Part shown: positions 4,353 through 60,983 of the stretch, piece after piece | Position numbering within the stretch: position 1 is the first letter of the stretch | How the letters are laid out: the number at the start of each line of letters is the position of its first letter | NCBI GenBank assembly: GCA_964343575.1 | Contig: CAYFJV010000002.1 | Span: forward strand, 69,585 to 133,584 | DNA: 64,000 bases | Source: an uncultured Methanosarcinales archaeon | GTDB lineage: Archaea > Nanobdellota > Nanobdellia > Woesearchaeales > GW2011-AR9 | Direction of reading: 5' to 3' | Notes under the pieces: model-generated | Told to the model about the DNA's origin: nothing | Databases searched by the model: none | Seen by the model: the letters and a program-made list of their open reading frames with translations, nothing else | Program-made: the position numbers and the translations under genes

Positions 4353-4552
4353 TATTATTTAGCTGCATACTTCTTAACGACTTAGCAGAAAAAGTCTTTT
4401 CCCCTGGCCGAGTCTAGAGCAAAAGGCTCTTTTCACGCTTTCGTTTTTCTGTGTAAAACAGAAAAACCGTTCAAAGAGAACTGCTTCCCTAGCATCGCTT
4501 GCCGACAAGAGGCAGGCGGGGTGACTTTTTCTACAGAGCTCTTCTTAACAGA

Positions 4553-4585: not shown

Positions 4586-5926
4586 ATGGATTTTGTAACT
4601 CTGGCACTCTTGTCCATTAGTTTTATCCTATTCTTTGGCTTTTTCTCAGAATTTATTTTCCGAAGATTCAACATTCCAGATGTTCTGTTCTTGATCATTT
4701 TAGGTTTTATTTTGGGACCACATGTCTTAGGTTACTTAGATCCAAGCTTCTTTGTTGATATCGCTCCAATATTCACGACCTTCGCCTTGCTCTTTTTGCT
4801 TTTTGATGGTGCCTTCAACATTAATCTCTCTTCGTTGATACGAGAGTTCTCACAAAGTTTTGTGCTTACCACCTACAACTTTTTCATCTCCTCTGCGGTG
4901 ATAACTGGAGTACTTTTCTTGTTCAAGTTTGATATCACCACCTCCTTATTAGTTGGTTTTGCTCTTGGTGGCGTTTCTTCAGCCTTTGTTATCCCTGTTT
5001 TGCAAGAAATGAAAGTTGGACAGAAAGTTTATTCTTTACTTGCTTTAGAATCTGCTCTTACGGATGTGTTTTGTATCGTTTTCTCCTTGACTGTTTTAGA
5101 AGTCATGAGCTTGGGAGGATTTGGTGTCCAAAAGATTTTGACGCAGCTCAGTTCTCTTTTTGCGGTTGCTGCAATGGTTGGGATCATTGGGGGGATTGTT
5201 TGGATTTTTTTAGTTCTGAAATTCTTTAGAGAACACAATTATATGATGGCTATTGCTTATCTTATCTTCATTTATGTTGCTGCTGATTTCTTGAATGGGA
5301 ATGGTGCAATTGCAACTTTGTTCTTTGGTCTTGTTTTGAATAACTCAAAGCAATTGTCCTCTATCATTAAAGGAATCACTACCAAAAATACTTCTCTCAA
5401 GAAAAGAAAGGATATTATCGCAGGAGATCTTGGTGTTTCTATCACTACGCCTTCCGAAGAATATTTTTATCACCAAATTTCCTTCTTTTTGAAAACCTTC
5501 TTTTTTGTGTACATTGGTATTCTTATTGATTTGAGTGATTGGAAAGCGCTTCTTATTGGGATTATTTTATCATTTCTACTTTGGGCTGCTCGTTGCGCAT
5601 CATCGCTGCTTACCAAACGTTATAGTAGTTGGGATAGAAAATTGATTAATGTCATTTTTGCCCGGGGTCTTGCTGCAGCAGCAATCGCACAAATTGCAAT
5701 CTCCCAAGGAGTTATGCATGCAGAGTTTTTGGCTAAGGTGATCTATGTGGTTATCACTGGAACCATTTTACTCAGCTCTTTGAGTGTCTTTGTCTTTCGT
5801 ATACAAAAGAAAAGGCAAGATGCTGTTTTGGAGACAACTAAAGCTGTTAAAAAGACAAAAAGAAGTAGCCAGAAGAAAGCAGCAGGCAAGACACAGAAAG
5901 CAAGGAGAAAAAAGAAGCGTTCTTAG
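4586..5926 (+). CDS. Na+/H+ (cation:proton) antiporter, CPA1/NhaP family, with a Lys-rich C-terminal tail
   Basis: About 11 predicted TM helices. The N-terminus FSEFIFRRFNIPDVLFLIILGFILGP is typical of NhaP. The C-terminal tail is KKTKRSSQKKAAGKTQKARRKKKRS. Confidence 0.75.
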   Translation: MDFVTLALLSISFILFFGFFSEFIFRRFNIPDVLFLIILGFILGPHVLGYLDPSFFVDIAPIFTTFALLFLLFDGAFNINLSSLIREFSQSFVLTTYNFFISSAVITGVLFLFKFDITTSLLVGFALGGVSSAFVIPVLQEMKVGQKVYSLLALESALTDVFCIVFSLTVLEVMSLGGFGVQKILTQLSSLFAVAAMVGIIGGIVWIFLVLKFFREHNYMMAIAYLIFIYVAADFLNGNGAIATLFFGLVLNNSKQLSSIIKGITTKNTSLKKRKDIIAGDLGVSITTPSEEYFYHQISFFLKTFFFVYIGILIDLSDWKALLIGIILSFLLWAARCASSLLTKRYSSWDRKLINVIFARGLAAAAIAQIAISQGVMHAEFLAKVIYVVITGTILLSSLSVFVFRIQKKRQDAVLETTKAVKKTKRSSQKKAAGKTQKARRKKKRS

Positions 5927-7548: not shown

Positions 7549-7623
7549 TGGGGCTGCCCGGATTTGAACCGGGGTTCAGCGGTCCCAAACCGCTAGTGAT
7601 AGACCAAGCTACACTACAGCTCC
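7549..7623 (-). tRNA. tRNA-Pro (anticodon UGG)
   Basis: The minus-strand sequence GGAGCTGTAGTGTAGCTTGGTCTATCACTAGCGGTTTGGGACCGCTGAACCCCGGTTCAAATCCGGGCAGCCCCA folds as a cloverleaf. The anticodon stem AGCGG/CCGCT closes the loop TTTGGGA (anticodon TGG, G37). The T-arm is CCCGG-TTCAAAT-CCGGG. The acceptor stem GGAGCTG/CAGCCCC has one A3:C70 mismatch. No CCA is encoded; the gene is followed by a T-run. Confidence 0.65.
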
Positions 7624-23788: not shown

Positions 23789-24991
23789 TTAATCCTTTAA
23801 TTGAATGGAACGTTCAATAAGTTCTTTAAGTTTTGCTTTAATACCTTCTTCTAAGGACATAGAGATCTCTCTTGTTCGCCCATACCTTCCTTTGGAAACG
23901 ATTTTTGCATTGATGATCCCCAGCATATCAAACTCGGCTAGAATATCAGAGACTCTTCTTTGGGTAAGCACATTGAAACGTACTTTCTTACAAAGTGTTT
24001 GATACACATCATAAATCTCTCCAGTGTAGATGGTCTTTTTCTTTGGTGCAAGTAGGAGGATTGCGTAGAGGACGGCTTGAAATTGCTTTGGTTGGCTTAC
24101 TACGGCATTAATGATCTTATCTGATTCAATTTTTTTCTCTGCTTCATCAAGGTGCTCTATCTCAATTGTTTTAGAAGTGCTTCTCTCTGCTAATTCTCCT
24201 GCAACTCTGAGAAGATCAATTGCTCTTCTTGCATCGCCATGTTCTCTAGCGGCGTAGGCAGCACATTTTTCGATAACTCCGGGTTTGACAACCTCTGGTC
24301 GAAAAGCACTTTGCGCCCTTTTTCTTAAGATGTCCTGGATCTGTAAGGCATTATAAGGAGGAAAGATAAGTTCTTCTTCGCTCAGAGAAGATTTTACTCT
24401 GGGATCTAAGTTCTCTGCAAAAATAAGATTGTTAGAGATTCCAATAAGACAAATTTGTGCATTTTTGAGCTCTGAATTAATCCTTGTAAGATTATAGAGA
24501 ATCTCATCTCCTATTTTTTTAGTAAGCTGATCTATTTCATCAAGGACAAGCAAAATAAGCTTCTTTTCTTTGTCAACAAGAGAATAGAATATATTGTAGA
24601 CTTCATCTGTTGGAAGACCGGTGGCAGGAACTTCTTTACCAAACTCCTTAATGAGCTGGGCTATGAGCCGATACTCAGTATCTGCTATCCTTTTTAATTT
24701 ACAATTTACATAGATGCTTTGCAAAGGAACTTCGTTTTTCTTTGCAATCTCTTCCATTGACTGTAAGATGTATTTTATAGAGAGTGTTTTCCCGGTTCCT
24801 GTTTTTCCATAAATAAGAAGGCTAGAGGGTTTTTCTAAACGCAGAGCGGGAGCTAAGATGTTTGCAACCTCTTGAATAAGTTCCTCACGAAATAAGACTT
24901 CTGATGGAACATAGGCAGAGAGAAGATACTCTTTACTTAAAAAGATTGAATCTTTCTTAAGAAAGTTTTCGAAAAAATCTGTAATCCCCAT
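23789..24991 (-). CDS. cdc6: Orc1/Cdc6 replication initiator (AAA+ ATPase with C-terminal winged helix)
   Basis: Walker A motif GKTGTGKT, Walker B motif LVLDEID, sensor motifs and a C-terminal wH domain. Confidence 0.95.
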   Translation of the reverse strand: MGITDFFENFLKKDSIFLSKEYLLSAYVPSEVLFREELIQEVANILAPALRLEKPSSLLIYGKTGTGKTLSIKYILQSMEEIAKKNEVPLQSIYVNCKLKRIADTEYRLIAQLIKEFGKEVPATGLPTDEVYNIFYSLVDKEKKLILLVLDEIDQLTKKIGDEILYNLTRINSELKNAQICLIGISNNLIFAENLDPRVKSSLSEEELIFPPYNALQIQDILRKRAQSAFRPEVVKPGVIEKCAAYAAREHGDARRAIDLLRVAGELAERSTSKTIEIEHLDEAEKKIESDKIINAVVSQPKQFQAVLYAILLLAPKKKTIYTGEIYDVYQTLCKKVRFNVLTQRRVSDILAEFDMLGIINAKIVSKGRYGRTREISMSLEEGIKAKLKELIERSIQLKD

Positions 24992-25790
24992 TGGAAATGC
25001 CCCACCCCTTAGTTTCTTCTGGAAAGCCTTTTTTGAGAAAATATTCTCTTTGGCTTGAATTGTTGAAGTGGTTTGTTTCCTTTAAATCTTTTTTGTTCAT
25101 TGAAGAATGAAGTAGAAAAGAAGTATATTCTGTTCTCTTTACTTGAATGGTTGTTTCGTAGTTGTTTTATCATTGTTCTTTTGCGTTGGGAGGAGAGATG
25201 AACTACACGAGTTAAATGCACTCTTTTTCTTTTCCTTTTTCTTCTCATTTTTTCTTTTATTTGTTTCTCTCTTGTTTGTTTTCTATTTATATTATTTATT
25301 TCAATATTGTAAATAATAATAATAATAATAAGCTTAGCTAAAAAAGAAGATTTAGAAAAAGCATTTGCGATTTGAGAACTGCGCTTAACTTTTCAGAGAG
25401 CAGTGTTTCTTTTTTTAGGTTTTTTTCTTTTTTCTTCTAACTCTAAAAATTTCTTTTTCTTTTCTAAACAAAGAGAAGATTTCTTTTCCTTTCTTACTTT
25501 TCTTTGTTTTCCTTTTTTTTTTGGTTTTTTGAAAAAGAGTTTTCCATGAGAAGAGAGGGGGATGGTGCGTTTGTGCTTGTTAGTGTTTGGAGAAAAGAAT
25601 ATTGGTTTCTTAGTTTTCTTCTTTTTGTGTTGTTTTTGACTATTCTTTGAAAGAATTTGAATGAATTGTATCGAAGGCGAGCCAAGTTTTTAACAAGTTT
25701 TTCTCTTCTTTTTTCTTTTTCTGACAATTTTTCCTCTTTTCCGGAAACATTTAAATAATAGTTTTGGCTGTTTTTTGCTAATGGTTCTTG
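24992..25790. other. Candidate chromosomal replication origin (oriC)
   Basis: An ~800-bp non-coding region lies immediately upstream of orc1/cdc6 and just beyond the orc1-DP1-DP2 gene array, the conserved Pyrococcus-type arrangement. It is extremely A/T-rich with long T/A tracts and an (AAT)6 microsatellite. It also contains GGAAA-type elements (CTTCTGGAAAG at about 25016 and the palindrome TTTCCGGAAAC at about 25738) reminiscent of mini-ORB cores. Confidence 0.45.
25312..25331. repeat. (AAT)6 microsatellite inside the putative origin region
   Basis: Directly visible as aataataataataataat. Confidence 0.9.
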
Positions 25791-26654: not shown

Positions 26655-27440
26655 CTAAAGAATTTTTACTTTCCCTGGAAGATTTTGAAAGATTTCTCCC
26701 ATCTCAAGCATACGCTCAATTGCTTTTTCTGTTTCAGAATTGTTAAGGAGATCAATAAGCTCCTCAATAGCAACACCATTTCCTTGATCTAATTCTTTTA
26801 TTTTCTCTCTAATGAGCTCATTGAGTTGTACTTTTTGCCCTAAGTTTTCAAGGCTTTGATTGATTTCTTCTTTGACTTCACTTATTTCGTCCTTATTTTC
26901 TATCTCAATGGTTTCTACTGTAATCTTTTCATCCTCTTTTTTCGCTTCTTGTTCTGTATGCAATTGCTCTGAGTGTAAAGCTGGCTCTTGAACTGCTGCT
27001 TGGTGTTTTTCTTTATCTACTTGGATCTCTTCTTCTTTTTGTTCTTCCTTATCCTGTTTAAGTTCAAGGGCCCTTAGCTCAAGCCACTCTTTTTCAACTA
27101 CTTTTAGAATTTCAGGTGCTAAATATTTTTCCTGGTTAAAGACCCGCACTCTTGCGATGCAAAGGGCAATGTCACCAACGTTGAGCTCTTCAAGACGTTT
27201 GTGCTCTTCAAAAACTCGAGCTAGAATTTGGCCTGAACCATCGTCGAGAAGCACAGAAGTAGTTGAACCATTTTTGGCAATAGAAAGAATAATGGCAATA
27301 ATGTTTACTCGGTAGAGTTTTTCTTGCTTTGTTGTGAGCAAAAAGTTGGCTTGTCCTTCCTCTTCTGTAATATATTCTCCAGAAATGATAGCCCCAATGG
27401 TGGTCTTTCTTGCTGTGTGTCTGGTGTAAGAGGCTTGCAT
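26655..27440 (-). CDS. OB-fold plus C-terminal winged-helix protein (RPA32/Stn1-like architecture), acidic linker
   Basis: The N-terminal ~110 aa have a beta-rich OB-like pattern (LYRVNIIAIILS...VLLDDGSGQILARVFEE...VGDIALCIARVRVF). A Glu/Lys-rich linker follows. The C-terminal ~50 aa are wH-like (VAIEELIDLLNNSETEKAIERMLEMGEIFQ). The gene is adjacent to MCM. Confidence 0.35.
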   Translation of the reverse strand: MQASYTRHTARKTTIGAIISGEYITEEEGQANFLLTTKQEKLYRVNIIAIILSIAKNGSTTSVLLDDGSGQILARVFEEHKRLEELNVGDIALCIARVRVFNQEKYLAPEILKVVEKEWLELRALELKQDKEEQKEEEIQVDKEKHQAAVQEPALHSEQLHTEQEAKKEDEKITVETIEIENKDEISEVKEEINQSLENLGQKVQLNELIREKIKELDQGNGVAIEELIDLLNNSETEKAIERMLEMGEIFQNLPGKVKIL

Positions 27441-27479
27441 AATCCTTTGGAACTTTTTGTGGTTTTAATCTTTGTTTTT

Positions 27480-27625
27480 GTAGAGAATATAGGTTCTTTT
27501 TAGGTGGCACTTGCCAAGCGGGGCCGGAAAGACCCTTGTCCGCCTGGTGCTTTTTCTTTCCTGGAAAAAGGGCTCCCAAGGAATTCGCTTCTTTATTCTG
27601 ATTTTCCCAGCAACCAGGCAAGTGC
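27480..27625. ncRNA. Candidate structured small RNA (class unknown) in a GC-rich island between MCM and the OB/wH gene
   Basis: GC is about 60% in an otherwise AT-rich intergenic region. The 5' segment GGTGGCACTTGCC (about 27508) is complementary to GGCAAGTGCGCC (about 27608), forming a long terminal helix. Internal hairpins include GGGCC-GGAAA-GACCC and AGGCGG...CCGCTT. The two overlapping minus-strand ORFs in the track are low-complexity and are rejected as coding. Confidence 0.35.
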
Positions 27626-27636
27626 GCCGCCTTTGC

Positions 27637-29670
27637 CTATAATCTTTGCACAAAGCCCTTTTTTGGCTCAAAGATGTCTCCTGACCTTCTTAATTTGGTA
27701 AGTACCTCATCAACATCATCTTCAGAAATATTCTTCTCTTTAGCCGCTTGCATAATCATTTCAATTGGAATGATTTTTTCTCCAACTTCTTTCTCTACTT
27801 TGCTAACTAGATCTTTAATAATGCTGATTTTGCTTCGTTGTGTTGCCGTAATCTTACTGCTAATACGGTCAATGTCAATCTTTCCAGTCTCACTGTCTTT
27901 TGCAATTTGGTTAAGGCTATAATCAAGTAGCTCAATTGCTTTTTGCGCGTCTTTTTTGGTAACTTTTTTTGCCAGGCGCAACTTTGCTGAACCTTCAGCT
28001 AAACGCACCAGAGCTTCAAGCTGCCGAGCCGAAATGGGGATGGAGCGAACTCCTCCTTCTTCAACATTGCCAAAGTTTCTCATATTTACATAATATTCTT
28101 GAATCTCTTGAATTGCGGCGTCTGTAAGTTCTGGGTTTGCAGTATTTCTCACATACATGAAATATTTTTTTAAGACGTCAGTTGGAATATCTGATTTTGC
28201 TCTTTCCGGATTTTGATGAAGTTTAAGGATAAAGGAAGCCATGATTTTGTCTTTCTCTTTGCTTGGTAAATCCTTTACTGGAAAAATAAGATCAAATCTG
28301 TTGATGAGTGCCGGTGGGAGGTTGATTTGATTTGCTATTAAGTCGTAGGGATCGAATCTTCCAAACTTTGGGTTTGCTGCTGCCAGAAGAGTGGTTTCAC
28401 AGCGGAGTGTTGCTTGAATGTTTGCTTTACTCACACTTACTGTTTGCTGTTCCATCGCCTCGTGCAAGGCAGATCTATCTTCCTTGGTCATCTTATCCAT
28501 CTCATCAATAATTGCAAAACCACGGTTAGCAAGGACTAATGTTCCTGCTTCTAAGCTCCATCCGCCAAGAAATTCATCCTTAACAACACTTGCCGTAAGA
28601 CCTGCCGCGCTTGCCCCTTTACCGCTAGTAAAACGAGATTTTGGTGCAACCTTGGTTATCCTCTTAAGCAGCTGAGATTTTCCTGCTCCGGGATCTCCTA
28701 TTAAGAGCATGTGCATATCTCCTCTTGTTTTTACACCATCAGGTCTTGCTTTTTTACAACCGCCAGCGAGTTGAAGCACAAGCGCTTCTTTGATTTTATC
28801 ATGCCCATAAATGGATGGGGCGATATTTTCGGAAAGATAACCATGTACTTGAGGATGTTTAGCAATATCTTTTATCTGTTCAAGTTCGTCTTCAGTAATT
28901 TTCATCTCGGAAGGATCATTTTCCATCGGTTCAATGAAGTTCGCTTCTAAGATAAGATCATATTTAGTTGACTTTCCTCCGCTTCGTAAGGTGATTGGTA
29001 CTTCGCTTACCCAACCGTAGAGCTTTACGCGCGCCCCTGGGCTGCTTTTTCTCTCTGGGATGGGACTCACCAAGTCTCCTTTAAGAAAAACGTTCATACG
29101 CTTTGGTTGCGCGCCGTCAAGATCATCTGGTGATTCTTCAAGTACCAATGCTTGTCCATCGATGAGCTCTTTGCTCATCTCTTTGAATTTTCCCTTTCTT
29201 CCGCAAGAGCATCTGCTTGGCTCTTTGAATTTTTGATCAAGCTGCAGTACCTTGAGAATGTTCCCGCAAGATGGGCATTCAAAAGTTGCACGTGCTACAT
29301 GGGGACGCACATCACTTTTTTGTCTAACAATTCCATCACACCATAGAAATTTTCCAAGGTGTTTGCTTCGAATTTCACTTACTCTCACTTTAAGAGATTC
29401 AGGAAAGTTTTTGAGACGTACATTGAACTTGTCTAATTTTTTGGGAAGATCAAACTCTTTGATAGCTAACTCTGCAGCTTTGAGAAGGTTCTCTGGGTCT
29501 TCAATAATTTCTTCAGTAAGCTCGGTGTTAAATTTTAGGAGAGCAGAAAAGTCGAGCACCATAGAATTTTGTCCTTTTCGCACTGCTTCAAGAAGTTGCG
29601 CGTGATAGTGCTGTTCAATAAACTCTCTAAAAAGAGTAATTTGTTTGTCTACTTCCAATGTCCACCCCAA
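27637..29670 (-). CDS. mcm: MCM replicative helicase
   Basis: N-terminal Zn finger (CPSCGN...CSCG), Walker A GDPGAGKSQLL, Walker B IDEMDKM, arginine finger and C-terminal wH domain. 677 aa with no intein. Confidence 0.95.
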   Translation of the reverse strand: MGWTLEVDKQITLFREFIEQHYHAQLLEAVRKGQNSMVLDFSALLKFNTELTEEIIEDPENLLKAAELAIKEFDLPKKLDKFNVRLKNFPESLKVRVSEIRSKHLGKFLWCDGIVRQKSDVRPHVARATFECPSCGNILKVLQLDQKFKEPSRCSCGRKGKFKEMSKELIDGQALVLEESPDDLDGAQPKRMNVFLKGDLVSPIPERKSSPGARVKLYGWVSEVPITLRSGGKSTKYDLILEANFIEPMENDPSEMKITEDELEQIKDIAKHPQVHGYLSENIAPSIYGHDKIKEALVLQLAGGCKKARPDGVKTRGDMHMLLIGDPGAGKSQLLKRITKVAPKSRFTSGKGASAAGLTASVVKDEFLGGWSLEAGTLVLANRGFAIIDEMDKMTKEDRSALHEAMEQQTVSVSKANIQATLRCETTLLAAANPKFGRFDPYDLIANQINLPPALINRFDLIFPVKDLPSKEKDKIMASFILKLHQNPERAKSDIPTDVLKKYFMYVRNTANPELTDAAIQEIQEYYVNMRNFGNVEEGGVRSIPISARQLEALVRLAEGSAKLRLAKKVTKKDAQKAIELLDYSLNQIAKDSETGKIDIDRISSKITATQRSKISIIKDLVSKVEKEVGEKIIPIEMIMQAAKEKNISEDDVDEVLTKLRRSGDIFEPKKGFVQRL

Positions 29671-30691: not shown

Positions 30692-31579
30692 ATGGTTAGT
30701 GCTACTTTTACTCATATTCTTCTCTCTTATGGGGAGATTTTTTTGAAAGGAAAAAATAAGGGTAGTTTTGAGCAGAAGTTGCTTTCTAATATTCGAAAAC
30801 AGTGCGGTTTTGGACAAGGTAGGTTGGACTTTGAGCGAGCGGGAAGCCGTTTTCTTTTACCTTATTTCGAAGAGCATGAAAAGCTGCAAAGAGTATTTGG
30901 TTTGAGTAATTATGCTCTAGCAGTTCGAGTTGAGAAAGAAATTGAGCAAATTAAACAAGTTGCTCTTAAGTTTATGTCTGAAAAGAAAGGAACTTATCGC
31001 GTGATGGCTAAGCGAGCCGATAAACGTTTTGCTTTGACTTCTCCAGAGATTAATGTTGCGGTAGGTAGTTTTTTGGGAGAGCAGTTGGGGGAATTAGAAT
31101 TTTCTTTGAAGGGTGCAGAACATGTTTTGCATGTTGAAATTAATGAAAAGGGAGCTTTTGTGTTTTTAGAAGTTGTTTCTTGCTTTGGTGGTCTTCCAGT
31201 TGGCACCGGAGGTAAAGTTGGTGCTTTACTTGATGGGAGCGAGCAGAGTTTGCTTGCTTGTTTGCTTATGATGAAACGAGGCGTGGTTCCTATACTCTTT
31301 TCTTCTGGTCTTGTTGCTGATAAGGATTTGAAGTTGCTTCGTAGCTATTCTCCAAAGAATTTGTCGGTAGTGCAGTTTGCCGATGAAAAAGAGTTGATTG
31401 CTAAGATGTCTGCGAAGAGACTTTCTGTTTTGGTTGTTGGGCAGCAGTTTTCCACTTTTGAAGAGTTTTCTTTTGAGAAGAGAGGGGACTTGCTTGTCTT
31501 TCGTCCTTTGATTGCTTTTAGTTCTGCAGAAGTTGAGGGGAAGTTTTGTAACTTTTCTCAAGCAATTGGAAAGGAATAA
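30692..31579 (+). CDS. ThiI-like THUMP-domain protein with a degenerate PP-loop (possible pseudo-enzyme or tRNA-binding partner)
   Basis: The N-terminus (ILLSYGEIFLKGKNKGSFEQKL) matches the ThiI ferredoxin-like and THUMP domains. Where ThiI has LLSGGIDS, this protein has LLDGSEQS. At 295 aa it is about 100 aa shorter than ThiI. Confidence 0.6.
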   Translation: MVSATFTHILLSYGEIFLKGKNKGSFEQKLLSNIRKQCGFGQGRLDFERAGSRFLLPYFEEHEKLQRVFGLSNYALAVRVEKEIEQIKQVALKFMSEKKGTYRVMAKRADKRFALTSPEINVAVGSFLGEQLGELEFSLKGAEHVLHVEINEKGAFVFLEVVSCFGGLPVGTGGKVGALLDGSEQSLLACLLMMKRGVVPILFSSGLVADKDLKLLRSYSPKNLSVVQFADEKELIAKMSAKRLSVLVVGQQFSTFEEFSFEKRGDLLVFRPLIAFSSAEVEGKFCNFSQAIGKE

Positions 31580-31596
31580 AAGGAATAAGCTTTTTC

Positions 31597-31797
31597 TTGT
31601 CTCTTATGGGGATTTGGGATGGGTTTTCTAGAAGTGCTGCTGTTGCAGAAGTGGAAGAGGAGCTTACCGAGGAAGAGTTTCTTGCCTTTTCTGATTCTAT
31701 CCGTAACACTGTAACTAGTTTGCGTGGTTCTTTGCACAATTATACTAAGATTTTTAGAGAGTTTGCAGTTGAGTTGGAAGCGGCTGCGCAGAATTAA
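31597..31797 (+). CDS. Hypothetical small acidic protein
   Basis: 66-aa ORF; weak support. Confidence 0.25.
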   Translation: MSLMGIWDGFSRSAAVAEVEEELTEEEFLAFSDSIRNTVTSLRGSLHNYTKIFREFAVELEAAAQN

Positions 31798-31847
31798 TTC
31801 TTGTTCTTTTTGGAAAAATATAAGAGGAAAGATCTTTCTCTTCTTGT

Positions 31848-32397
31848 TATGGTTATTAAGTTTCTGCTTGGTTTGATCCCTTTTATTAGAAGAGAAGCTG
31901 AAGAGGAAAAAATTGCTGGTCATATTGAAAATCATGCCGAGGAGTCTGATGCTTTGGCTCGTCTTCTCATGAAACGCTTACGAGAGGTTTTCGTTGCTAA
32001 TGACTCTTTTTTCCCAAATGGTGTTCAATATGAACTTGTTACCGTAAATGGGACTGCCCCTGTGGGTAAAGTTCTTCATAGGAAGAAGAGAACCTACTTT
32101 GCAAACTTGGCGCTTGCCGAGAGAATTGTGGAAGAACTGTTTAGAAGAAATCTTATCCCGGCAGAAGACCAAGATTACTTCAAAAAATATAAGAAAGACC
32201 TTCTTGACCTTCTTGCACTTAAAGACCAAGTTGACTTTTATCGGCGTGAAGTGTTTCACAGAGCCTTGGGTCGCAAAATTTCTCTTTATATTTTTGTCTT
32301 TTACAGCCAAGGGGCTATTTCCATCTATCAAGACAAAATTTTTGCTGTCAAAGAACCTTTTGGCTTACTTGGTGGTGAAGATGATGAAGAAACTTAG
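31848..32397 (+). CDS. Hypothetical protein
   Basis: The track ORF starts at a TTG at 31801; the first ATG (MVIKFLLG) is at 31848. No family recognised. Confidence 0.35.
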
Positions 32398-32420
32398 TTC
32401 TCTTTGTTTGTTATTGTTAA

Positions 32421-34754
32421 TTACATAACTCCTTTATTGAAGTTACCAATGGTGGTTCCTTTCTTGAGCAGAGAGATGTCTCCTGGATCTTCTCCATCGA
32501 GGATTTTTTTGTAGGCTTGCACTTCTTCTTTTGCTTTTTCTAGAAGCTTGTTGCTGCAATAATCTTCTCTGAGAAATTCAAGGTAGAAATGTTTGATGCC
32601 TTGTTCTTTGAATACTTTTATTTTGTCAAGAAGAGCAACCTTTCTTGAGTAACGCATTTCTGTGTTTTGATTTGGTGTGATTAAGAGCGGGAAAGTAATT
32701 TTCTTCTCATCAGTGAGCTTCTTTTCTTCTCTTGCTCCTTTGAAATTCATTACCACTGGGCGCCCATGAGCAAAAACCATGAAGTCTTTATCTTTGAATT
32801 GAGCTAGTTCTTTGGCGTTAAGTTCGATTGAGACGATAGGGCTTGCGTTTTCTTTTTTGACTTCTTGTAGATCAATATCATTGAAGACGTTCATGGTATA
32901 GAAAAGGTGTTTTTTGAGCTTTGGAAGCCCTTTTGTGCCTTCTGAGCGTTTTAGCTCCTTGTCCACTCTGTAGAGCCCGTGGTTTGCAATCATAATTCCA
33001 CCTGGCTTTTCCTTTTCTAGAAGAATGAGTATCTTTTTGATATCTGCATCACTCAGTGTTAAGTGAGTAAAAGCAAAGAACTCTGCTTTAGGATTAAGTT
33101 TTTTGGTAAGTTGTTTTGCCTTTGCAAACCCAGGAGAGAAGATATCATAGTAGATGGTGTTTGCCTTCTTTGCAACTATTTTGAGCAGCTCTAGGGAATT
33201 CACCCTAATGTTAAGGCTTTCCTGTGTCTTTTTTTCTCCTTTGTTTTTTGTTTTGCTCCCTTTTTCTAAAATTTCTTCTGCCCTGAGCATTCCAGGAGAA
33301 GTTCTCGCTACTTTTGGTAGGAAAACTGAGTTTAGTTCCTCTTTGATTTGAGTTATGCTTGAGGAAGGTAGGAAAAGATTCTTTGGAAGTTTTCCTTCTA
33401 GCGTGATTGTAAAGAAGTTGTTTTTGTTTAGTTTCTCTTCAATAGTTTCTTTGTTAAGTGCGCTTGTCTTTGCCTGTTGTAAAAGATCTTTGCTGGCGAA
33501 AATATGTTCTTTTCCTTTCCAGTTTGTGTTGAGCTCTAGGGCTTTTCCAATCTCCGCTTGGCTAATGCTGAGGGCGAGCGGATATCTTTTATTCTTCCCA
33601 GCCAGGGGTTTTCCTTTGCTTTGTGAAGTAAGATAAACTCTTGCCCCTTCTCTGAATGAAGGGTTTGGAATTTGTACCTCTTGGCCTTTTATAGCATGTT
33701 TGATTATTTTTCCATTCTTGTCCAAGAGTTTTTGTACAAACTCTCCTTTCATTTCTCCTTTTCTTTTATCCCAAAAACCAATGCCATCATGGATATAAAG
33801 CTCGTGAAGCAACTTTATCTTTTTGTTATGCACTTCTCCTAAGAAAATTCCCCTATGGGTGGGGAGTGTTGTGCTGAGTACTTCTTTATACTCATTTTTG
33901 AGGAAGAAGCCAGTAGTAAAGTCTCGATTGAAACTCATTCTGATGCGATCAAAATCTTCTTGGGTAAATTTTTTCCAGTTTCCAGAGTAGTACCTATCAA
34001 TTGCTTCTCGATAACATTTGGTGACTACCCCAACATACTCTGGAGATTTCATTCTCCCTTCAATCTTGATGGTGTGAACCCCACTTTCGATAATTTTTGG
34101 AATTTGATTGAGCAGCGCAAGATCTTTTGGACTGAGTAAGAAGCCTTCTTTGTTGTACTCTTTACGACAACTAGAAGCGCAAAGTCCTCGATTCCCTGAA
34201 CGTTTTCCGATGAGAGATGAGATGAGGCATTGTCCTGAATAAGAAATGCAAAGATGTCCATGACAGAAAATTTCTATAGGAAATTGTGATCGCTCTGAGA
34301 TGTATCTTAGCTCGTTAAAGTCAAGTTCTCTAGCAACTACTGCCAAGTCTGCGTATTGTTGCCAATTTTTGAGGCCCGCGTAGTTCATAATGCTTGCCTG
34401 CGTTGAGATGTGTACTTTGAGATCCGGATAGCGTTCTTTAATGAATGGAAGAAGATAGATGTCTTGTACAATTACTGCATCAACACCAGCTTCGTAGGCT
34501 TTGTCAAGCGCTTTGAACCATAGATTTAATTCATTGTTTTTTATGAGCGTGTTTAATGTGAGGTTAATCTCTACTCCATGAAAGTGGGCAAGCTGTATTG
34601 CAGCTGGGAGCGTTTCAAAAGTTAAATTTCCTTTGTTTTTTCTTCTGGCGTTGAAGTTCTTCACCCCAAGATAAACTACATCAGCACCATTATTGATAGC
34701 TGCTTGCAGAGCTTCTAGTGAACCTGCCGGAGAGAGGAGTTTGAGTTTTTTCAT
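32421..34754 (-). CDS. Peptidase U32 family protein (RlhA/TrhP-type; possible RNA 5-hydroxylation factor) with a long C-terminal extension
   Basis: N-terminal U32 TIM-barrel core with the signature EIFCHGHLCISYSGQC...GNRGLCASSCR. At 777 aa it is roughly twice the length of the minimal U32. Confidence 0.8.
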   Translation of the reverse strand: MKKLKLLSPAGSLEALQAAINNGADVVYLGVKNFNARRKNKGNLTFETLPAAIQLAHFHGVEINLTLNTLIKNNELNLWFKALDKAYEAGVDAVIVQDIYLLPFIKERYPDLKVHISTQASIMNYAGLKNWQQYADLAVVARELDFNELRYISERSQFPIEIFCHGHLCISYSGQCLISSLIGKRSGNRGLCASSCRKEYNKEGFLLSPKDLALLNQIPKIIESGVHTIKIEGRMKSPEYVGVVTKCYREAIDRYYSGNWKKFTQEDFDRIRMSFNRDFTTGFFLKNEYKEVLSTTLPTHRGIFLGEVHNKKIKLLHELYIHDGIGFWDKRKGEMKGEFVQKLLDKNGKIIKHAIKGQEVQIPNPSFREGARVYLTSQSKGKPLAGKNKRYPLALSISQAEIGKALELNTNWKGKEHIFASKDLLQQAKTSALNKETIEEKLNKNNFFTITLEGKLPKNLFLPSSSITQIKEELNSVFLPKVARTSPGMLRAEEILEKGSKTKNKGEKKTQESLNIRVNSLELLKIVAKKANTIYYDIFSPGFAKAKQLTKKLNPKAEFFAFTHLTLSDADIKKILILLEKEKPGGIMIANHGLYRVDKELKRSEGTKGLPKLKKHLFYTMNVFNDIDLQEVKKENASPIVSIELNAKELAQFKDKDFMVFAHGRPVVMNFKGAREEKKLTDEKKITFPLLITPNQNTEMRYSRKVALLDKIKVFKEQGIKHFYLEFLREDYCSNKLLEKAKEEVQAYKKILDGEDPGDISLLKKGTTIGNFNKGVM

Positions 34755-34788
34755 TTTGTTTTATTTTTCTGTTTCTTGTTTATTCCAG

Positions 34789-35823
34789 TTAATTACCCAC
34801 ATATTTTGAATAAAGGGCTTGCGCTTCTTTTTCTTTCTTTGCTTTTATGAGTGCTCTTCCATCTTTGAAGATGAGAAGGTTGAAGGAGTTGTCTTTTGCT
34901 TTTATGGCGAGTGCAGTGTTGTCATAGATAGTTGTGATGTTTTCTTCTTTGTTTAGTTTTTCTTCTAGCTCTTTGAGATCGATAGCTTTATTTCCTAGGA
35001 TTTGGAAGTTTCCAGAGGAACAGAAGCGTTTAGTCCTTTCCTCCTCTCTTTCTGGGTTGAGGTGGGTGAAGTTTCCCTGACAAGTAGGACAGTTTTCTCT
35101 TCTTTTTGCTTTGAGTTTTCTCAGATCATTGTTCCAGATGTTGAAAGTGATAAGTTCTCCTTGATCTACTGTTTTGCCTAGAATTATTTTGAGGGCCAGA
35201 GTTACTTGCATGCTTGCTATGATATGTGTTGTGCTGTTCAAAACTCCAGCAGAAGCGCAGGTCTCCCCTCGCGCATTGTTTGGCAGTGCGCAGTTAAGGC
35301 AAGAGATGTTCTCTTTACCTTCTTCTTGGGTTATTGCCATAAGCATACCCTCTTTTTGGATAGCTCCAGCATAGATCCAAGGAATCTTTTCTTTTGCACA
35401 AAAGTCGTTGATGAGCAGTTTTGTTTGAAAGTTGTCTGTGCAGTCGAGTAGAAGAGAATACTCTTTTAGTTTGAGAGAAAGGATGTTTTTTGCATTAAGA
35501 TGCATGTTTTCAGTTTCTATCTTTACTTGAGAGTTAATCTGTAACAATTTTTCCTTGCAGACTTCTGCTTTGTTCTTTCCAATGTCTTTTTCTGTAAAAA
35601 GCGCTTGTCTTTGTAGATTAGAAAGCTCGATTGTGTCTCGATCAATAAGCAAGAGTTCTTGCACACCTGCTCGAACTAGAAGTTCTGCTGCCACAGTTCC
35701 AAGGGCTCCGCAGCCAATTATTGCTATTCTTGCAGCACAGATTTTTTCTTGCCCTTCTTCTTGGATGTCTGGGATGAGCATTTGTCTTGAGTACAGCTCC
35801 TTTTGTTTGTTTGTGAGTTTCAT
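34789..35823 (-). CDS. E1-like MoeB/ThiF/UbaA adenylyltransferase for ubiquitin-like sulfur carriers, with a ~90-aa C-terminal extension
   Basis: Rossmann motif IIGCGALGTVAAELLVRAGV and two CxxC pairs (CLNC...CPTC). An uncharacterised C-terminal domain follows. Confidence 0.85.
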   Translation of the reverse strand: MKLTNKQKELYSRQMLIPDIQEEGQEKICAARIAIIGCGALGTVAAELLVRAGVQELLLIDRDTIELSNLQRQALFTEKDIGKNKAEVCKEKLLQINSQVKIETENMHLNAKNILSLKLKEYSLLLDCTDNFQTKLLINDFCAKEKIPWIYAGAIQKEGMLMAITQEEGKENISCLNCALPNNARGETCASAGVLNSTTHIIASMQVTLALKIILGKTVDQGELITFNIWNNDLRKLKAKRRENCPTCQGNFTHLNPEREEERTKRFCSSGNFQILGNKAIDLKELEEKLNKEENITTIYDNTALAIKAKDNSFNLLIFKDGRALIKAKKEKEAQALYSKYVGN

Positions 35824-35826
35824 CTT

Positions 35827-36816
35827 TTATTGCGTTTCTTCTGCTTTTTGTAGCACTGCTTTGAGCTTACAAGCATTACAAACTTTTCCGTTACTTGGCT
35901 CGCCGCAGCTTTGGCAGGATTGGATGCCTTTTTTTGAACTTGTGTTTCTTGCACTGGCCATTTCTCTTTCTTTGAGTAAAGGGAGCATGTCTAGGAAAGA
36001 ATTAATGATCCCTGTTTTGGTCCCAGGGAATTTTTCTTCAAAAGTATTGAGCAAATCACGTACTTCTGCGCGGTAGCTTTGGGTTACATTTGGACACTCA
36101 GTGTATTCTACTTTGAATCCTTTGAGAAAAGTGTAGAGCCTGGTTTCTTTCTCTGAGCAAAAATAAAGTGGCTTTACTCTACGAACAAAGTCTTGGTGCG
36201 CCTCAACCCCACTTATAGGGCCGAGTTTTGCTGCAAGCTTGGTATTTGCCTTGAACAGGTTCATAAGCACAGCTTGGGACTCATCATCAAGGTTGTGTCC
36301 AGTTACTAGTTTTGTTGCCTTTAGTTCCTTTGCATATTTGTTGAGAAGGTACCTTCGCCACACACCACAGATGTTACAGGGCTTTTTTTTTGTCTCTTTG
36401 TTGATGATAGGGAATGCTTGGTCAAGTGTTTTCCCAAAGTCTTCTTCAAAAGAAGCAATTTTGAGTGGGACATCATGTTGTTTACAGAAAGTTTTGAGAT
36501 CGTCAAGTGTTTTTTCTCTGTAGTCTGCAATCCCTTCATTGATAATGAGCGCATGCAAATTGTCTCTTGGAAAGTTGTTTTTTTCCATGTACTTTTTGAC
36601 TAGATAGAGAACGGTTAGAGAATCTTTCCCTCCAGAAGCTGCAACACAAACCTTATCGTTTCTCCCGATAAGCTGAAAGCGATTAATTGTTTTGATAACC
36701 TTCTCTTCAAAATAAGAAATGAAATGTTTTTTACAAAGTTTCCCGTGCTGTAATTCGATTACTGCCTTTTCCTCGCATTTGATGCAAGAGTTTGTTTTGT
36801 TTCTTGTTTCTTGCAT
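35827..36816 (-). CDS. ncsA: tRNA 2-thiouridine synthetase, NcsA/TtuA/Ncs6 family (PP-loop ATPase with Zn fingers)
   Basis: N-terminal CxxC...C zinc finger, PP-loop AASGGKDS, central CNICG and C-terminal CQSCG...CNAC motifs. Confidence 0.85.
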   Translation of the reverse strand: MQETRNKTNSCIKCEEKAVIELQHGKLCKKHFISYFEEKVIKTINRFQLIGRNDKVCVAASGGKDSLTVLYLVKKYMEKNNFPRDNLHALIINEGIADYREKTLDDLKTFCKQHDVPLKIASFEEDFGKTLDQAFPIINKETKKKPCNICGVWRRYLLNKYAKELKATKLVTGHNLDDESQAVLMNLFKANTKLAAKLGPISGVEAHQDFVRRVKPLYFCSEKETRLYTFLKGFKVEYTECPNVTQSYRAEVRDLLNTFEEKFPGTKTGIINSFLDMLPLLKEREMASARNTSSKKGIQSCQSCGEPSNGKVCNACKLKAVLQKAEETQ

Positions 36817-39379: not shown

Positions 39380-41809
39380 GTGATGTTAGCGTCAGCTCAA
39401 AAAAGAGGACATTGTAGGGATAGCAAGCGTGGGCAAGTTACCCTGTTCATAATTCTAGGAATGGTTATTCTTATCTCCGTTGGTTTCATGCTAGCGCTTA
39501 CTGCCATGATTCAGAAAGGACAATTGCAAGTTGCTGAAGAAGATGTAGTTTCCAATTTATTTCAAACCGAGAGTTTGCGTTTGTTTATAGATGATTGTTT
39601 GTATGATGCCCTTGAGGAGGGTTTAGTTCAAATTGGAGAGCAAGGGCGTTTGTGGAAAGAGCAGGATGGTGGCACTGTTCCTTTTGTTGCAGGAGAGACC
39701 GGAACCTTTCATTTTGGAAAACAGGTTTATTATGCAATCAGTTATGATAACAACAGTAATCATAGCGAGGCTTACCCTTGTTCCAATTCCACAGATCTTT
39801 CTCCTGATTATTGTCGCTACAGTTTTCCTGAGGAAGGAAAATTTGGTGAGAAGGAGCATTTGAGTGCAAGTGCAATTGAAGGAGATTTGCTCCGATACAT
39901 TACTCAGGAAGCAGCTCTTTGTATGGAAGAAGTGCTTCAAAGTAATTATTCTTTGTTCGTCCCGGTTGTTGCTGAAGAAATTGATCTTTCTTTAGATATT
40001 GCTACAAATGGCATTGCTGTAGAAGCAAGCTATCCTTTACATCTTGAGCAAGGGGGAGAAGAATACACCCAACTTACCGAGTTTGATTTTTTTTACTCTA
40101 GCTCTTTGAGCTCTTTTTTACTTCAAGCAGTAACACGCCCTATTAATGAAGAGCAAAGTGATCCAACTTATCTTTTTTCAGAAGCTGATTTGCAAAGTTC
40201 GGAGCCCTATCAACTTTTAGATCCCACTTTTACAAAAACAGAGGCGAGCAGTGGGGATACTATCATTCAATATAACTTGAACCCGGGAGTGATTCTTGAG
40301 AACCAAGATTATTTCTTTCAATTTGCTTTAGAAAATCGCCCTCCTGCACTTGACTACATTGAGCGTAATGCTTGTTTAAGTTATGATTATTTGGTTTTAG
40401 AGGGAGAGCAAGGAGATATGGGAAAATTACTTTTAGATGCATCAGCTAGTGACCCTGAGGAGGATAGCGTTACTTTTTCTTTGCTTGACGATCATTTGCC
40501 AGTGCCACTTAGTTCGGTAGATTCTGATTCTTGGAGTGCAGACTTACAAGGTGCGGCTCCAGGTTATTATAACTTCACTCTTTTAGCGGCAGATGAACAT
40601 GGTAGGACTGATTTGCAAAATGTTCGCGTCCTTCTTGATCGAGAAATCACCGCTGAATTTTCGGTCGCTTCCCCTTATTGTACTTTTGCAGGAGACCATA
40701 GTTGTTTACTCTCTACCGAAGATCCTTTTTTTGTAACACTTACTAACCCAGGAGAATCGTTAGCAGCAGACGTTGATGAAGTGCTTGAGCTTAGTTACGA
40801 TGGTTTTAATGGAGAGAGCTTTGTTTCAGGAGCTTTGTATCCTTCCTTACTTGGTGCAGAGAGTTGTATTGGTCTTCCAATGGAAACTGAGACTAGCCCA
40901 GCATCTTGTAACATTAGTGCTTACGACCCATTCATTGAAAGTTGGAAAGATTCTTTGTTGGGCCCGAGCAGTACGCACCCCTACTTAAGCCAAACGACGC
41001 CAGATGGCGAACTTAGTGTGGCCTTTTTTACAGGTTATTGCGGCGCCTGGGAGTATGAAAATAAGGAGTTCTTACATTTTGAAGTTGCAGAGTGTATCCC
41101 TCATGAAAATCTTGAGAATCCCTTCGCTTACCCTTACCACCACCAAACTTTTGATCCGATCAGCGGAGAATATCTTGGTCTTGATGAGGAAATTAGTCCT
41201 TTCTTGGCGGCCCACAGTTGTTGTAATATGAATGGAACTTACAAGGCAGCAGGCTCAAGTTGTTATGAAAGTGCTCCTGGTTGTTATGGAGGTATTGTTG
41301 GTTGGACTTCTAGCGCTCCCGGTCTTGTCTTGGAGCAGGAAAGCGATACTTGTAGTGGGCTTCGTGGGAATGTTTGTGGGACTGGAAGTTCTAAAATAAG
41401 CGAATTGTATCAAGGAAACCTTGTTTGTGGAAGCAGTTTTGATGTTTCTTGCTCTTTAGATCAAATCCCAGATGTCTGTGAAGGAAGAGATGCTTGGGGT
41501 TATGTTGATGAGAACTTTGATGGTATTAACGATGCTTGGTGTCACGGGCAAATGGGTTGTAGTGCTCTTTGCTCACTCGGCGATGGCGGGTCAGTAGTTT
41601 ATTCAGGAGGAGGAGTTGCTCCAAGTGGGCCAGAGGGCATTAACCAACAGGCAGTTTTGGGACAGGCAAGTGATGATGCTTTTGCGCCTTTCGATCCTTT
41701 TTTCTCTTTTAGTTGTGGATGTAGTTCTGCTACAGAAGGAAGTGTTTGTGATGCTAACTTTGATGGAGAATTCTTAGGGCAGTGTGTTTCTAGTGTTTGT
41801 GTTGAGTAG
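39380..41809 (+). CDS. Large (809 aa) acidic, Cys-rich extracellular protein with a class III (prepilin-like) signal peptide
   Basis: The N-terminus is ...SKRG|QVTLFIILGMVILISVGFMLALTAM, a basic tract then G|Q then a 22-aa hydrophobic stretch. The mature part is D/E-rich with many paired Cys residues. Confidence 0.6.
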   Translation: MMLASAQKRGHCRDSKRGQVTLFIILGMVILISVGFMLALTAMIQKGQLQVAEEDVVSNLFQTESLRLFIDDCLYDALEEGLVQIGEQGRLWKEQDGGTVPFVAGETGTFHFGKQVYYAISYDNNSNHSEAYPCSNSTDLSPDYCRYSFPEEGKFGEKEHLSASAIEGDLLRYITQEAALCMEEVLQSNYSLFVPVVAEEIDLSLDIATNGIAVEASYPLHLEQGGEEYTQLTEFDFFYSSSLSSFLLQAVTRPINEEQSDPTYLFSEADLQSSEPYQLLDPTFTKTEASSGDTIIQYNLNPGVILENQDYFFQFALENRPPALDYIERNACLSYDYLVLEGEQGDMGKLLLDASASDPEEDSVTFSLLDDHLPVPLSSVDSDSWSADLQGAAPGYYNFTLLAADEHGRTDLQNVRVLLDREITAEFSVASPYCTFAGDHSCLLSTEDPFFVTLTNPGESLAADVDEVLELSYDGFNGESFVSGALYPSLLGAESCIGLPMETETSPASCNISAYDPFIESWKDSLLGPSSTHPYLSQTTPDGELSVAFFTGYCGAWEYENKEFLHFEVAECIPHENLENPFAYPYHHQTFDPISGEYLGLDEEISPFLAAHSCCNMNGTYKAAGSSCYESAPGCYGGIVGWTSSAPGLVLEQESDTCSGLRGNVCGTGSSKISELYQGNLVCGSSFDVSCSLDQIPDVCEGRDAWGYVDENFDGINDAWCHGQMGCSALCSLGDGGSVVYSGGGVAPSGPEGINQQAVLGQASDDAFAPFDPFFSFSCGCSSATEGSVCDANFDGEFLGQCVSSVCVE

Positions 41810-42034
41810 GTTTGGGTTTTGTTTTAGAGATGGTAGAAAAAGTCTTACCTTCTGCCGAAGCTTATTCCTGAAGGACTCTTGTCCGCCTTTGGATTTTCTC
41901 CTTTTGGTAGAAAATGGCTACCAAGAGCATCGCTCATTGGAAGTTTCTTGCCAGCAAAGGGGCAGAGAAGGAGACTTTTTCTACATCTTTTTTGGAGTAG
42001 AAAGTTTTAAGTTTTCTTAGGATTTGTTCTTCTT

Positions 42035-42604
42035 ATGGACCCGGTAAGTTTTTTGCTTCTTCTCGTAGTTCTTTTAGGAGTATTCTTTACTCTTCTCTAT
42101 CTTCTTTTTAAGCAGAAGGAAGAACACTTTGAGTATAGTTTGCCTTTGGAAGATGGGGAAGACGATGAGAAAAAAAGATCTTTTTTTGATCCTTCATTTT
42201 TTGCTAGAATTCAAGAACACCTCTTTTTTTTGCGTAAGAAGCACAAGAGAAAAGTGAGCTCTTACAAGCGTCATGAAGAGTTTGCAACCTTCCCTGAAAC
42301 TAAGGCTGCTTTTGTTGCTGGAAAAGACACTTCACAAAAGACAGGGAAAGGGATTGGAAAGGGTAGACACATGCACCGTCTTGGTAAGCTAGTTGATAAA
42401 CATCAACGAAAAAAAGTAAAAGCGTCTGCAGGAGGTAAGAAGAAGGAAAAAAAGTTTTTTCTGAACAGAGTTTTGGCTAAACGTATTGATTTTTGGAAAG
42501 AGAATACTCCTTTGCATTCTATCGAACGCATTGATGCTCTTGAAAGAGTTCGTTCTGTAGCAAAAGGTGCTGTGAAAAAGAAAGAAATTAAGAAAAAGAA
42601 GTAA
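42035..42604 (+). CDS. Membrane protein with an N-terminal TM helix and a long basic cytoplasmic region
   Basis: MDPVSFLLLLVVLLGVFFTLLYLLF followed by a K/R-rich region. Confidence 0.4.
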   Translation: MDPVSFLLLLVVLLGVFFTLLYLLFKQKEEHFEYSLPLEDGEDDEKKRSFFDPSFFARIQEHLFFLRKKHKRKVSSYKRHEEFATFPETKAAFVAGKDTSQKTGKGIGKGRHMHRLGKLVDKHQRKKVKASAGGKKKEKKFFLNRVLAKRIDFWKENTPLHSIERIDALERVRSVAKGAVKKKEIKKKK

Positions 42605-60908: not shown

Positions 60909-60983
60909 ATTGTATGAGCAAAATGCTTATAAAGCATTTTTCTTGTGTTTTCTTCATTATTTTGATCTTTCGGGGTGGTCATT

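Follow-up and report, generated by a model that had tools for sequence, protein, structure and literature searches.

A GC-rich hairpin element behind the MCM gene of an uncultured archaeon, most likely one of three diverged MITE copies

Here we describe a GC-rich element located directly after the MCM helicase gene in a 64,000-nucleotide stretch of DNA from an uncultured archaeon (hereafter the window), together with two related elements found elsewhere in the same stretch. Rather than a stable RNA gene from one of the known families, the element is most probably a hairpin-forming, non-autonomous MITE that is present here in three diverged copies. This reading is preferred because several features fit it jointly: the small size and lack of coding capacity, the presence of multiple dispersed copies, the terminal inverted repeats common to them, the 9-bp duplications flanking two of them (copies A and C), and the empty orthologous site of one (copy A). 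The MITE family is probably new.

The MCM-OB/wH spacer and the three copies

The region that attracted attention, 27441-27636, is the exact spacer that separates the stop codon of MCM (27637-27639) from the ATG at 27440 with which the gene for an OB-fold/winged-helix (OB/wH) protein starts, both genes being on the minus strand; the intergenic placement given in the original prediction fits it precisely. A replication gene cluster surrounds the spacer, and an AT-rich region beside cdc6 lies about 2 kb off. The window belongs to a marine DPANN archaeon resembling Woesearchaeota, and its MCM is 54-83% identical to MCMs from MAGs, many of them labelled Woesearchaeota or Nanoarchaeia. The GC-rich island itself is real, at 55% GC over 27503-27633 and not the 60% first estimated; the window as a whole has 40% GC, hence it is not strongly AT-rich. 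The median GC of crude intergenic segments is 38%, and the spacer ranks second among 27 such segments, with only the tRNA-Pro region higher, by little. The genes and the three copies are as follows.

27637-29670, minus strand: MCM helicase gene, with all MCM Pfam domains present; stop codon TAG (CTA on the plus strand, 27637-27639)
26655-27440, minus strand: OB/wH gene, 261 aa; conserved partner downstream of MCM in most relatives
27475-27639, plus strand: copy A, about 165 bp, 49% GC; aligns with B and C, the GC island being its inner part
41826-41992, plus strand: copy B, about 167 bp, between the ORFs 39380-41809 (plus) and 42035-42604 (plus)
4379-4540, plus strand: copy C, 162 bp, between the divergent genes 3943-4314 (minus) and 4586-5926 (plus)

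Copy B was first noticed in a list of inverted repeats covering the whole window, as a similar architecture at 41833-41984. The cores of A and B are about 70% identical and have in common CTTGTCCGCCT, GGCTNCCAAG, TCGCT, CCAGCAA and …TGCC/GGCA…; the terminal helix of B differs in sequence from that of A, with its complementarity retained. A covariance model built from the cores of A and B only (R1) found copy C at 4401-4518, with 38 bits and E = 4e-8, and the model was then rebuilt with all three copies (R2); copy A scores 129 bits with R1 and 115 bits with R2. Pairwise identity among the three is 67-74%, over lengths of 162-167 bp and at 43-49% GC. All of them lie on the plus strand of the window, and their orientation relative to neighbouring genes varies: A is antisense, B is sense and starts about 17 nt past the stop codon of its upstream gene, and C sits between divergent genes. 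The least regular of the three is A, in which the 5' end is degenerate and the outer arm on the 3' side, set beside those of B and C, is both short and degenerate; its 3' end falls about 7 nt short of its counterpart in B and C, and is exact only to within a few nucleotides.

The three-copy model detected no fourth copy in the whole window, both models detected none in 306 kb from 35 related loci, and a further 7 kb from the same organism held no additional copy. Copy C is identical in an independent metagenome contig (L183), and another contig of the same species (L189) carries copy A too. When assemblies of the same organism were checked for an empty site, their contigs only carried the copies or broke beside them. 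By blastn, the element had no match in 30 related loci, the window, plasmids or phages. Pattern scans were also made: in metagenomes, GGCACTTGCC-N(85-115)-GGCAAGTGC proved too unspecific and gave at least 120 chance matches, none of those listed resembling the element inside, the same pattern gave 19 chance matches in viral contigs, and a scan of viral contigs for core motifs gave 7 matches, none fitting the model. Six-frame translations of A, B and C used as protein queries returned no match, by a method insensitive enough to miss the known 78-aa ORF over B. Thus no copies were found outside this organism by metagenome and six-frame searches that are weak. Papers searched for the terminal inverted repeat sequence yielded unrelated primer matches only.

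Coding capacity can be set aside. The ORFs that had been pointed out over the spacer do exist; three ORFs over copy A that were compared with the public protein collection are absent from it, and reading frames are inconsistent across the copies. Over copy B, a 78-aa ORF is called in public assemblies as a singleton, and a phmmer search of it against 1.84 billion representatives returned itself and one weak, partial, probably spurious match; this ORF is spurious. Also, no transposase was found in the window, where ten ORFs of 325-454 aa each proved to be a housekeeping gene or to lack any Pfam family at E <= 1e-5.

Secondary structure and searches for RNA families

The core fold common to the copies consists of 27 base pairs, divided between the terminal helix, P1, and a central hairpin of four segments, P2. 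In copy A, these and the outer arms have the following coordinates.

27502-27515, plus strand: 5' strand of P1 (AGGTGGCACTTGCC), pairing with 27617-27632
27617-27632, plus strand: 3' strand of P1 (GGCAAGTGC-GC-CGCCT), with a 2-nt bulge at 27626-27627
27526-27591, plus strand: P2, the central long hairpin, of four stacked helices
27526-27528/27589-27591 with 27531-27532/27585-27586, then 27534-27538/27577-27581, 27542-27544/27571-27573 and 27550-27555/27565-27570, plus strand: the helices of P2
27475-27493, plus strand: outer 5' arm of copy A (TTTTTGTAGAGAATATAGG), a diverged form of the family end GTAGAAAAAGTC, complementary at 15 of 19 positions to 27636-27654
27636-27654, plus strand: partner of the outer arm, spanning the five final codons of MCM together with its stop codon

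P1 has nine perfect pairs (27507-27515/27617-27625), then the bulge, then five more (27502-27506/27628-27632), and its inner eight pairs covary with those of B and C. The long-range complementarity of the original prediction therefore stands, with its right arm having been put about 9 nt too far left. Two inner hairpins described at the same time, GGGCC-GGAAA-GACCC and AAGCGG/CCGCCT, are present in the sequence but are not kept in B and C, in the alignment as read. The outer helix of copy A is partly made of MCM coding sequence.

The copies have kept their pairing, whether as RNA or as DNA: 95% of the cells in the 27-pair core are paired, 12 of the 27 pairs have changed on both sides, and none of 500 shuffles did as well. 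This covariation comes from three sequences only, and for one of them, copy C, the alignment was made by the model itself. Pairing in helices 2-5 stands at 89-100%, with both sides changed in 9 of 19 pairs, and sliding the partner columns by 1-3 positions lowers pairing to 40-55%. The original prediction had looked to conserved secondary structure for support, and in this respect it was borne out.

Thermodynamic stability depends on how the element is delimited. For the stretch as first proposed, the minimum free energy gives z = -0.55 on the plus strand and -0.46 on the minus strand against dinucleotide shuffles, and its self-complementarity score is equalled by 42% of 131-nt windows. At its full extent, about 27475-27654, copy A folds with z = -2.85 on the plus strand. 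Folded at full length, the copies reach significance on either strand (z = -1.7 to -4.5), which is the expectation for a palindrome at the DNA level. In A and B the plus strand folds more stably than the minus strand by 6-7 kcal/mol, in C the strands are about equal, and there is a mild excess of G·U pairs on the plus strand (17 vs 9). Quasi-palindromic DNA is subject to template switching, an established mutational mechanism that can yield compensatory changes without selection on an RNA.

Searches for known RNA families were uniformly negative. None of the copies matches any family of Rfam 15, including Archaea_SRP, RNaseP_arch/RNaseP-T, C/D and H/ACA sRNAs, tRNA, riboswitches and others. 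At the gathering thresholds, only tRNA-Pro (7549-7623) passes in the window; the best scores around A, B and C are 11.6-18.6 bits, compared to thresholds of 34-90. The specific proposals made at the outset, an SRP RNA, RNase P RNA or snoRNA, thus found no Rfam match in any copy, even at E <= 5-10. ARAGORN, with introns allowed, called no tRNA at copy A. By eye, none of the C/D boxes, ACA box, BHB motif, RNase P CR-I, SRP helix 8 or class-II tRNA D-arm is conserved across the copies, and no TATA/BRE-like promoter motif common to the three was seen upstream of or inside them. Another RNA candidate was considered in the GC island at 48558-48848, but this sequence encodes the Gly-rich part of a protein of 2141 aa. 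A DGR template/variable repeat, a retron ncRNA, an IS200/605 PATE or omega-RNA and an IS110 bridge RNA were likewise rejected, there being no cognate enzyme nearby or no 9-bp duplications in such systems.

Termini, direct repeats and the empty site in relatives

The terminal inverted repeat GTAGAAAAAGTC…GACTTTTTCTAC is common to B and C and is exact at three of their four ends. Its positions, and those of the direct repeats flanking A and C, are given below.

41833-41844 and 41973-41984, plus strand: terminal inverted repeat of copy B, GTAGAAAAAGTC and GACTTTTTCTAC, both exact
4385-4396 and 4523-4534, plus strand: ends of copy C, GCAGAAAAAGTC (5', one mismatch against GTAGAAAAAGTC) and GACTTTTTCTAC (3', exact)
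27466-27474, unstranded: left direct repeat of copy A, TAATCTTTG; putative target-site duplication, now non-coding
27640-27648, unstranded: right direct repeat of copy A, TAATCTTTG; equals CAAAGATTA on the minus strand, where its three codons encode the terminal Q-R-L of MCM
4370-4378 and 4541-4549, unstranded: direct repeat of copy C, CTTCTTAAC, perfect over 9 bp on both flanks

The window contains no other exact match to GTAGAAAAAGTC or GACTTTTTCTAC, nor a further end with 0-1 mismatch. The ends of copy A are degenerate versions, GTAGAGAATA… and …CTTTGCCTA. The outermost 4-5 nt vary among the copies, and the true termini are therefore undefined. A high-GC viral contig (L175) carries the 12-nt inverted repeat of B and C on either side of an unrelated segment of 145 bp, a coincidence for which chance predicts roughly 0.02 occurrences, as a rough estimate. 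This hints at a widespread transposase family recognising these ends; a search of plasmids with the L175 element, seeking a parent IS, gave no match. The 3' end of C and both ends of the L175 segment read CTGTAG….

The direct repeats match at 9 of 9 positions at both A and C, and at A the repeat abuts the shortened 3' end. As background, a repeat of at least 9 nt between 30-nt flanks occurs at 0.87% of random sites in the window, so that two of three copies would carry such repeats by chance with a probability of about 2e-4. At copy B, the flanking repeat (6 exact, 7 of 8 with a mismatch, displaced on the 5' side) is unconvincing.

Comparison with relatives gives the repeat at A a direction. 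None of the 27 related loci whose sequence continues beyond MCM has the island downstream of that gene, by inspection and blastn; the MCMs of these loci are 54-83% identical, and the comparison covers the site of copy A only. In most of them the OB/wH gene follows MCM, across a spacer of 0-110 nt that is mostly AT-rich, and in some the two genes overlap. The closest relatives (L023 and L170-L174; MCM 81-83% identical) have the order TBP-MCM-OB/wH-SpoIIM-Cdc6 and a 75-nt spacer. The absence of the island from relatives therefore points to a lineage-specific insertion of about 120-170 bp. The original prediction had named lack of conservation in related genomes as grounds against itself, and at this locus the element is indeed missing from them.

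In L170, L174 and L023, all without the element, MCM ends with CAAAGATTA followed by TAA. Read against these sequences, the right-hand repeat of A is the ancestral target sequence, and the left 9-mer at 27466-27474 appears as a displaced duplicate of the MCM end, since relatives that are free of the element end MCM with CAAAGATTA; this is the prediction for a target-site duplication. Lengthened by two bases, the direct repeat of A still matches at 10 of 11 positions (TATAATCTTTG vs TTTAATCTTTG). On this evidence the duplication would have included the ancestral stop codon, the present TAG of MCM would have been made at the junction, and the TAA of the downstream copy would have changed later to AAA; reconstruction of the empty site requires this one later substitution in the left copy.

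From these observations a course of events can be proposed. A transposase encoded elsewhere would have inserted the element at the very end of the MCM gene, duplicating its last codons, and the sequence is consistent with a duplication of 9 bp or of 11 bp including one mismatch. The length of MCM would have been left intact by the TAG formed at the element junction, and the normally adjacent OB/wH gene would have been pushed about 170 nt from MCM. On the minus strand of the outer 5' arm of A, about 49 nt upstream of the OB/wH ATG, there is a TATA-like CCTATATT, which OB/wH may now use as its promoter. The copies differ by 26-33% yet the direct repeats of A and C are perfect; therefore, the divergence probably for the most part predates insertion, and the source elements would have diversified beforehand with the hairpin kept. 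We infer that the element needs its hairpin, be it in transposition or in the RNA form after co-transcription, unless the hairpin is kept by the template-switch correction of quasi-palindromes. Any effects on the expression of MCM or OB/wH, through the 3' hairpin, an internal T5 run or the new promoter, would be by-products.

Alternative readings, known systems and significance

The MITE reading has features set against it. The copies are unusually diverged for a family within one genome, all of them are on the plus strand, no autonomous element was found in the window and the flanking repeat of B is imperfect and badly placed. Copy A has a short 3' end and a degenerate 5' end, the outermost nucleotides vary among the copies, and the empty site of A can be reconstructed only with a later substitution; also, the many double changes that keep pairing and the mild G·U excess on the plus strand are a pattern equally seen in functional RNA families. 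In the main alternative, A, B and C are paralogous small RNAs, structured and perhaps mobile, about 120-165 nt long and made from the plus strand, with the hairpin as the functional product. At MCM, where it would lie antisense to the last codons and to the junction of MCM with OB/wH, such an RNA could regulate these replication genes, the other copies acting elsewhere or in trans. The case for it consists of the 27-pair core, so consistently paired at 26-33% divergence and collapsing when the columns are slid, the better plus-strand fold in A and B, the higher G·U count of the plus strand, the common strand, a T6 run (CTTTTTTGG) after A and after B on the plus strand, a GC content that is tRNA-like relative to the intergenic background, and the conserved unpaired motifs GCCRAG and UUGCCNNCAA. 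Against it stand the absence of a common promoter-like motif (as read), with B beginning so soon after the upstream stop codon, the lack of any Rfam match, the absence from the syntenic site and from all 306 kb of the related loci, and the near-equal folding of C on both strands; moreover, the covariation is thin, from three sequences with one model-aligned, and can be mimicked by template switching. The 9-bp direct repeats and terminal inverted repeats require a transposition step regardless, and we regard the small-RNA family as unlikely. Somewhat more doubtful is a mobile structured-RNA family in which an approximately 160-nt hairpin RNA is the selected product and transposition is its means of spread; such an RNA might guide or scaffold its own mobilisation, or the copies might form a regulatory set with one member antisense to the 3' end of MCM. 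The pairing kept at about 30% divergence and the mild plus-strand bias are compatible with a mobile structured RNA. The observations are better explained otherwise than by an independent stable-RNA gene, though a role at the RNA level is possible.

It is harder to sustain that the island is a locus-specific cis element of the MCM-OB/wH operon, such as a 3'-UTR stabiliser, a terminator, an attenuator or an origin-linked DNA site, and we hold this to be very unlikely. The position is suggestive, directly after the MCM stop and before the TATA-like box of OB/wH, within a replication gene cluster and near the AT-rich region beside cdc6; the minus-strand RNA would form a hairpin directly after the stop codon, with a U5 run mid-hairpin, and in the predicted fold this hairpin is long and well defined, with a centroid near the minimum free energy structure. 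The presence of B and C at two unrelated loci, in different relative orientation, effectively refutes a primary role of this kind, and the island is missing in the 27 relatives, in several of which MCM and OB/wH are adjacent or overlapping. Because there are copies elsewhere and none in relatives, any cis role would be secondary to insertion. A GC-rich spacer with a fortuitous inverted repeat deserves almost no credence: the z-score of only about -0.5 for the stretch as first delimited, the many windows that match its self-complementarity and the abundance of inverted repeats of similar length in the window would all be in keeping with chance, but the two homologous copies at E = 4e-8 or better, the covariation, the flanking repeats and the full-length z-scores refute it.

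Among known systems, the Correia/NEMIS elements of Neisseria and the ERIC/IRU elements of enterobacteria are intergenic imperfect palindromes of about 100-160 bp located near gene ends. They are co-transcribed with their neighbours, form long RNA hairpins and can carry promoter- or terminator-like signals, and their pairing tends to persist. Copies A-C resemble them as hairpin-forming intergenic repeats; unlike A-C, these families are bacterial and not archaeal, and there is no sequence similarity between them. Also, Correia elements duplicate TA, whereas A and C are flanked by 9 bp.

DDE insertion sequences of the IS4, IS5, IS256 and IS1 types make 8-9-bp target duplications, and 9 bp is typical of the IS10/IS50-type (IS4 family), IS903-type (IS5 family), IS256 and IS1. 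The ends of IS10/IS50 begin CTG. The 9-bp duplication and the CTG start at the 3' end of C and at the ends of the L175 segment are points of likeness to these elements, but no transposase gene or full-length IS with such ends was seen, and an assignment to an IS family from these two weak features, the 9-bp duplication and the CTG end, would be a guess. The archaeal SRP RNA, RNase P RNA and guide sRNAs are similar to A-C in being GC-enriched relative to intergenic DNA, in the arrangement of a terminal helix around stem-loops and in a size within the sRNA range. They differ in that A-C have no covariance-model match and no C/D or ACA boxes conserved (by eye), occur as three divergent copies in 64 kb, are missing from relatives and, at A and C, are flanked by direct repeats.

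The closest likeness is to prokaryotic MITEs, which are small, non-coding and intergenic, are present in several copies per genome and have no transposase of their own. They share with A-C inverted repeats at their termini, at least 10-15 bp in length, and short target duplications (2-10 bp), and the host clade of A-C has been reported to be MITE-rich. Archaeal MITEs range from 50 to 800 bp in a census that clustered them at 95% identity (PMC11602168; Nucleic Acids Res 2024;52:13094), and one of the most MITE-dense archaeal genomes that it reports is woesearchaeal, with 105 per Mb (PMC11602168). Two differences are that MITE families are usually known from near-identical copies, whereas A-C are only 67-74% identical, and that no partner IS is seen in the window.

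For annotation, these results mean that the GC island after MCM is to be labelled a repeat, most likely a MITE, and not an RNA gene, and that the 78-aa ORF over copy B is to be dropped. The well-maintained hairpin in old, diverged copies is a feature deserving a second look. The family would add a concrete member to the high MITE load reported for Woesearchaeota, of a kind already known in the clade (PMC11602168). In addition, a DPANN archaeon with a reduced genome offers here what is probably a small but clear case of MITE insertion at the stop codon of an essential replication gene, with the length of the protein unchanged. Finally, the insertion splits the otherwise tightly linked MCM-OB/wH pair, and it may have given OB/wH a new TATA-like box.

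Surroundings of the putative MITE copies

A gene call, a viral segment and some contig ends bear on the diverged copies of the putative MITE family.

41784-42020, +: 78-aa ORF lying wholly over copy B and annotated as a gene in public assemblies (P0121; loci L185 and L186)
L175 911-1055: segment of 145 bp in a GC-rich viral contig (IMGVR_UViG_3300036859_000386)

The 78-aa ORF forms a singleton cluster, and comparison with 1.84 billion representatives returned, besides the protein itself, only a single match, weak and partial (E = 6e-6). The gene call is almost certainly spurious. The viral segment is bounded by a perfect inverted repeat of 19 bp, GAGGCTGTAGAAAAAGTCC, which includes the 12-mer of the terminal inverted repeat that copies B and C share, and its interior is unrelated to the copies, with no match to their covariance model. 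The segment may be a MITE that a related transposase has mobilised.

In the ERR2281801/02 assemblies, which come from sister samples, one short contig (L187) ends less than ~30 nt from copy B, and two others (L188 and L190) flank the MCM-OB/wH region but do not reach across copy A. Breakage of the assembly at a repeat would fit these ends, as would low coverage alone.

The apical part of copy A (27565-27574) and the MCM codons for P-K-K-G-F (27654-27663) show perfect complementarity over 10 nt (AAAAAGGGCT/AGCCCTTTTT), which could be a chance match of A/T-rich runs. In the minus-strand mRNA, the MCM 3' coding end would thereby be able to pair with copy A.

The strongest GC island

42715-49140: putative surface protein of 2141 aa, containing the GC island at 48558-48848

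The strongest GC island of the window, at 48558-48848, reaches 63% GC over 120 nt. It was rejected as an RNA candidate: it codes for a Gly/Ser/Ala-rich low-complexity stretch, located directly after a hydrophobic segment and close to the C-terminus of the 2141-aa protein. A search of the island against Rfam gave no match.

The replication gene cluster and its putative origin

23789-24991, -: cdc6/orc1, bordering the AT-rich spacer
24992-25774: AT-rich spacer of ~780 bp between cdc6/orc1 and a SpoIIM-like gene
31801-32397: additional ORF between THUMP/ThiI and ThiF
32421-34754: additional ORF of 777 aa between THUMP/ThiI and ThiF
60975-62003, +: a second, RPA-like OB-fold protein, carrying a Rep_fac-A_C domain

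The spacer is likely a replication origin. Its GC content is 16-36% (per 100 nt), several motifs of 13-23 nt recur within it (e.g. CAGAGAGAAGAT/CAAAGAGAAGAT), and it contains an AT palindrome at 25284-25327. The cluster around it runs in the order PolD small subunit, Cdc6, the putative origin, SpoIIM, OB/wH, MCM and TBP. Immediately upstream of TBP-MCM, the closest relatives (L170-L174) carry ThiF, PP-loop and THUMP/ThiI genes, whereas in the window (30692-36816) the two additional ORFs separate THUMP/ThiI from ThiF, which is a local insertion or rearrangement.

Six close homologues of MCM (P0003, P0017, P0047, P0052, P0076 and P0107), of 1059-1163 aa, carry intein or homing-endonuclease domains, with PF14890 in all six and PF14528 in five; the intein is absent from the MCM of the window (677 aa). 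The RPA-like OB-fold gene lies ~33 kb away from the MCM-linked OB/wH gene, and the protein encoded by the latter is therefore probably not the sole single-strand-binding candidate.
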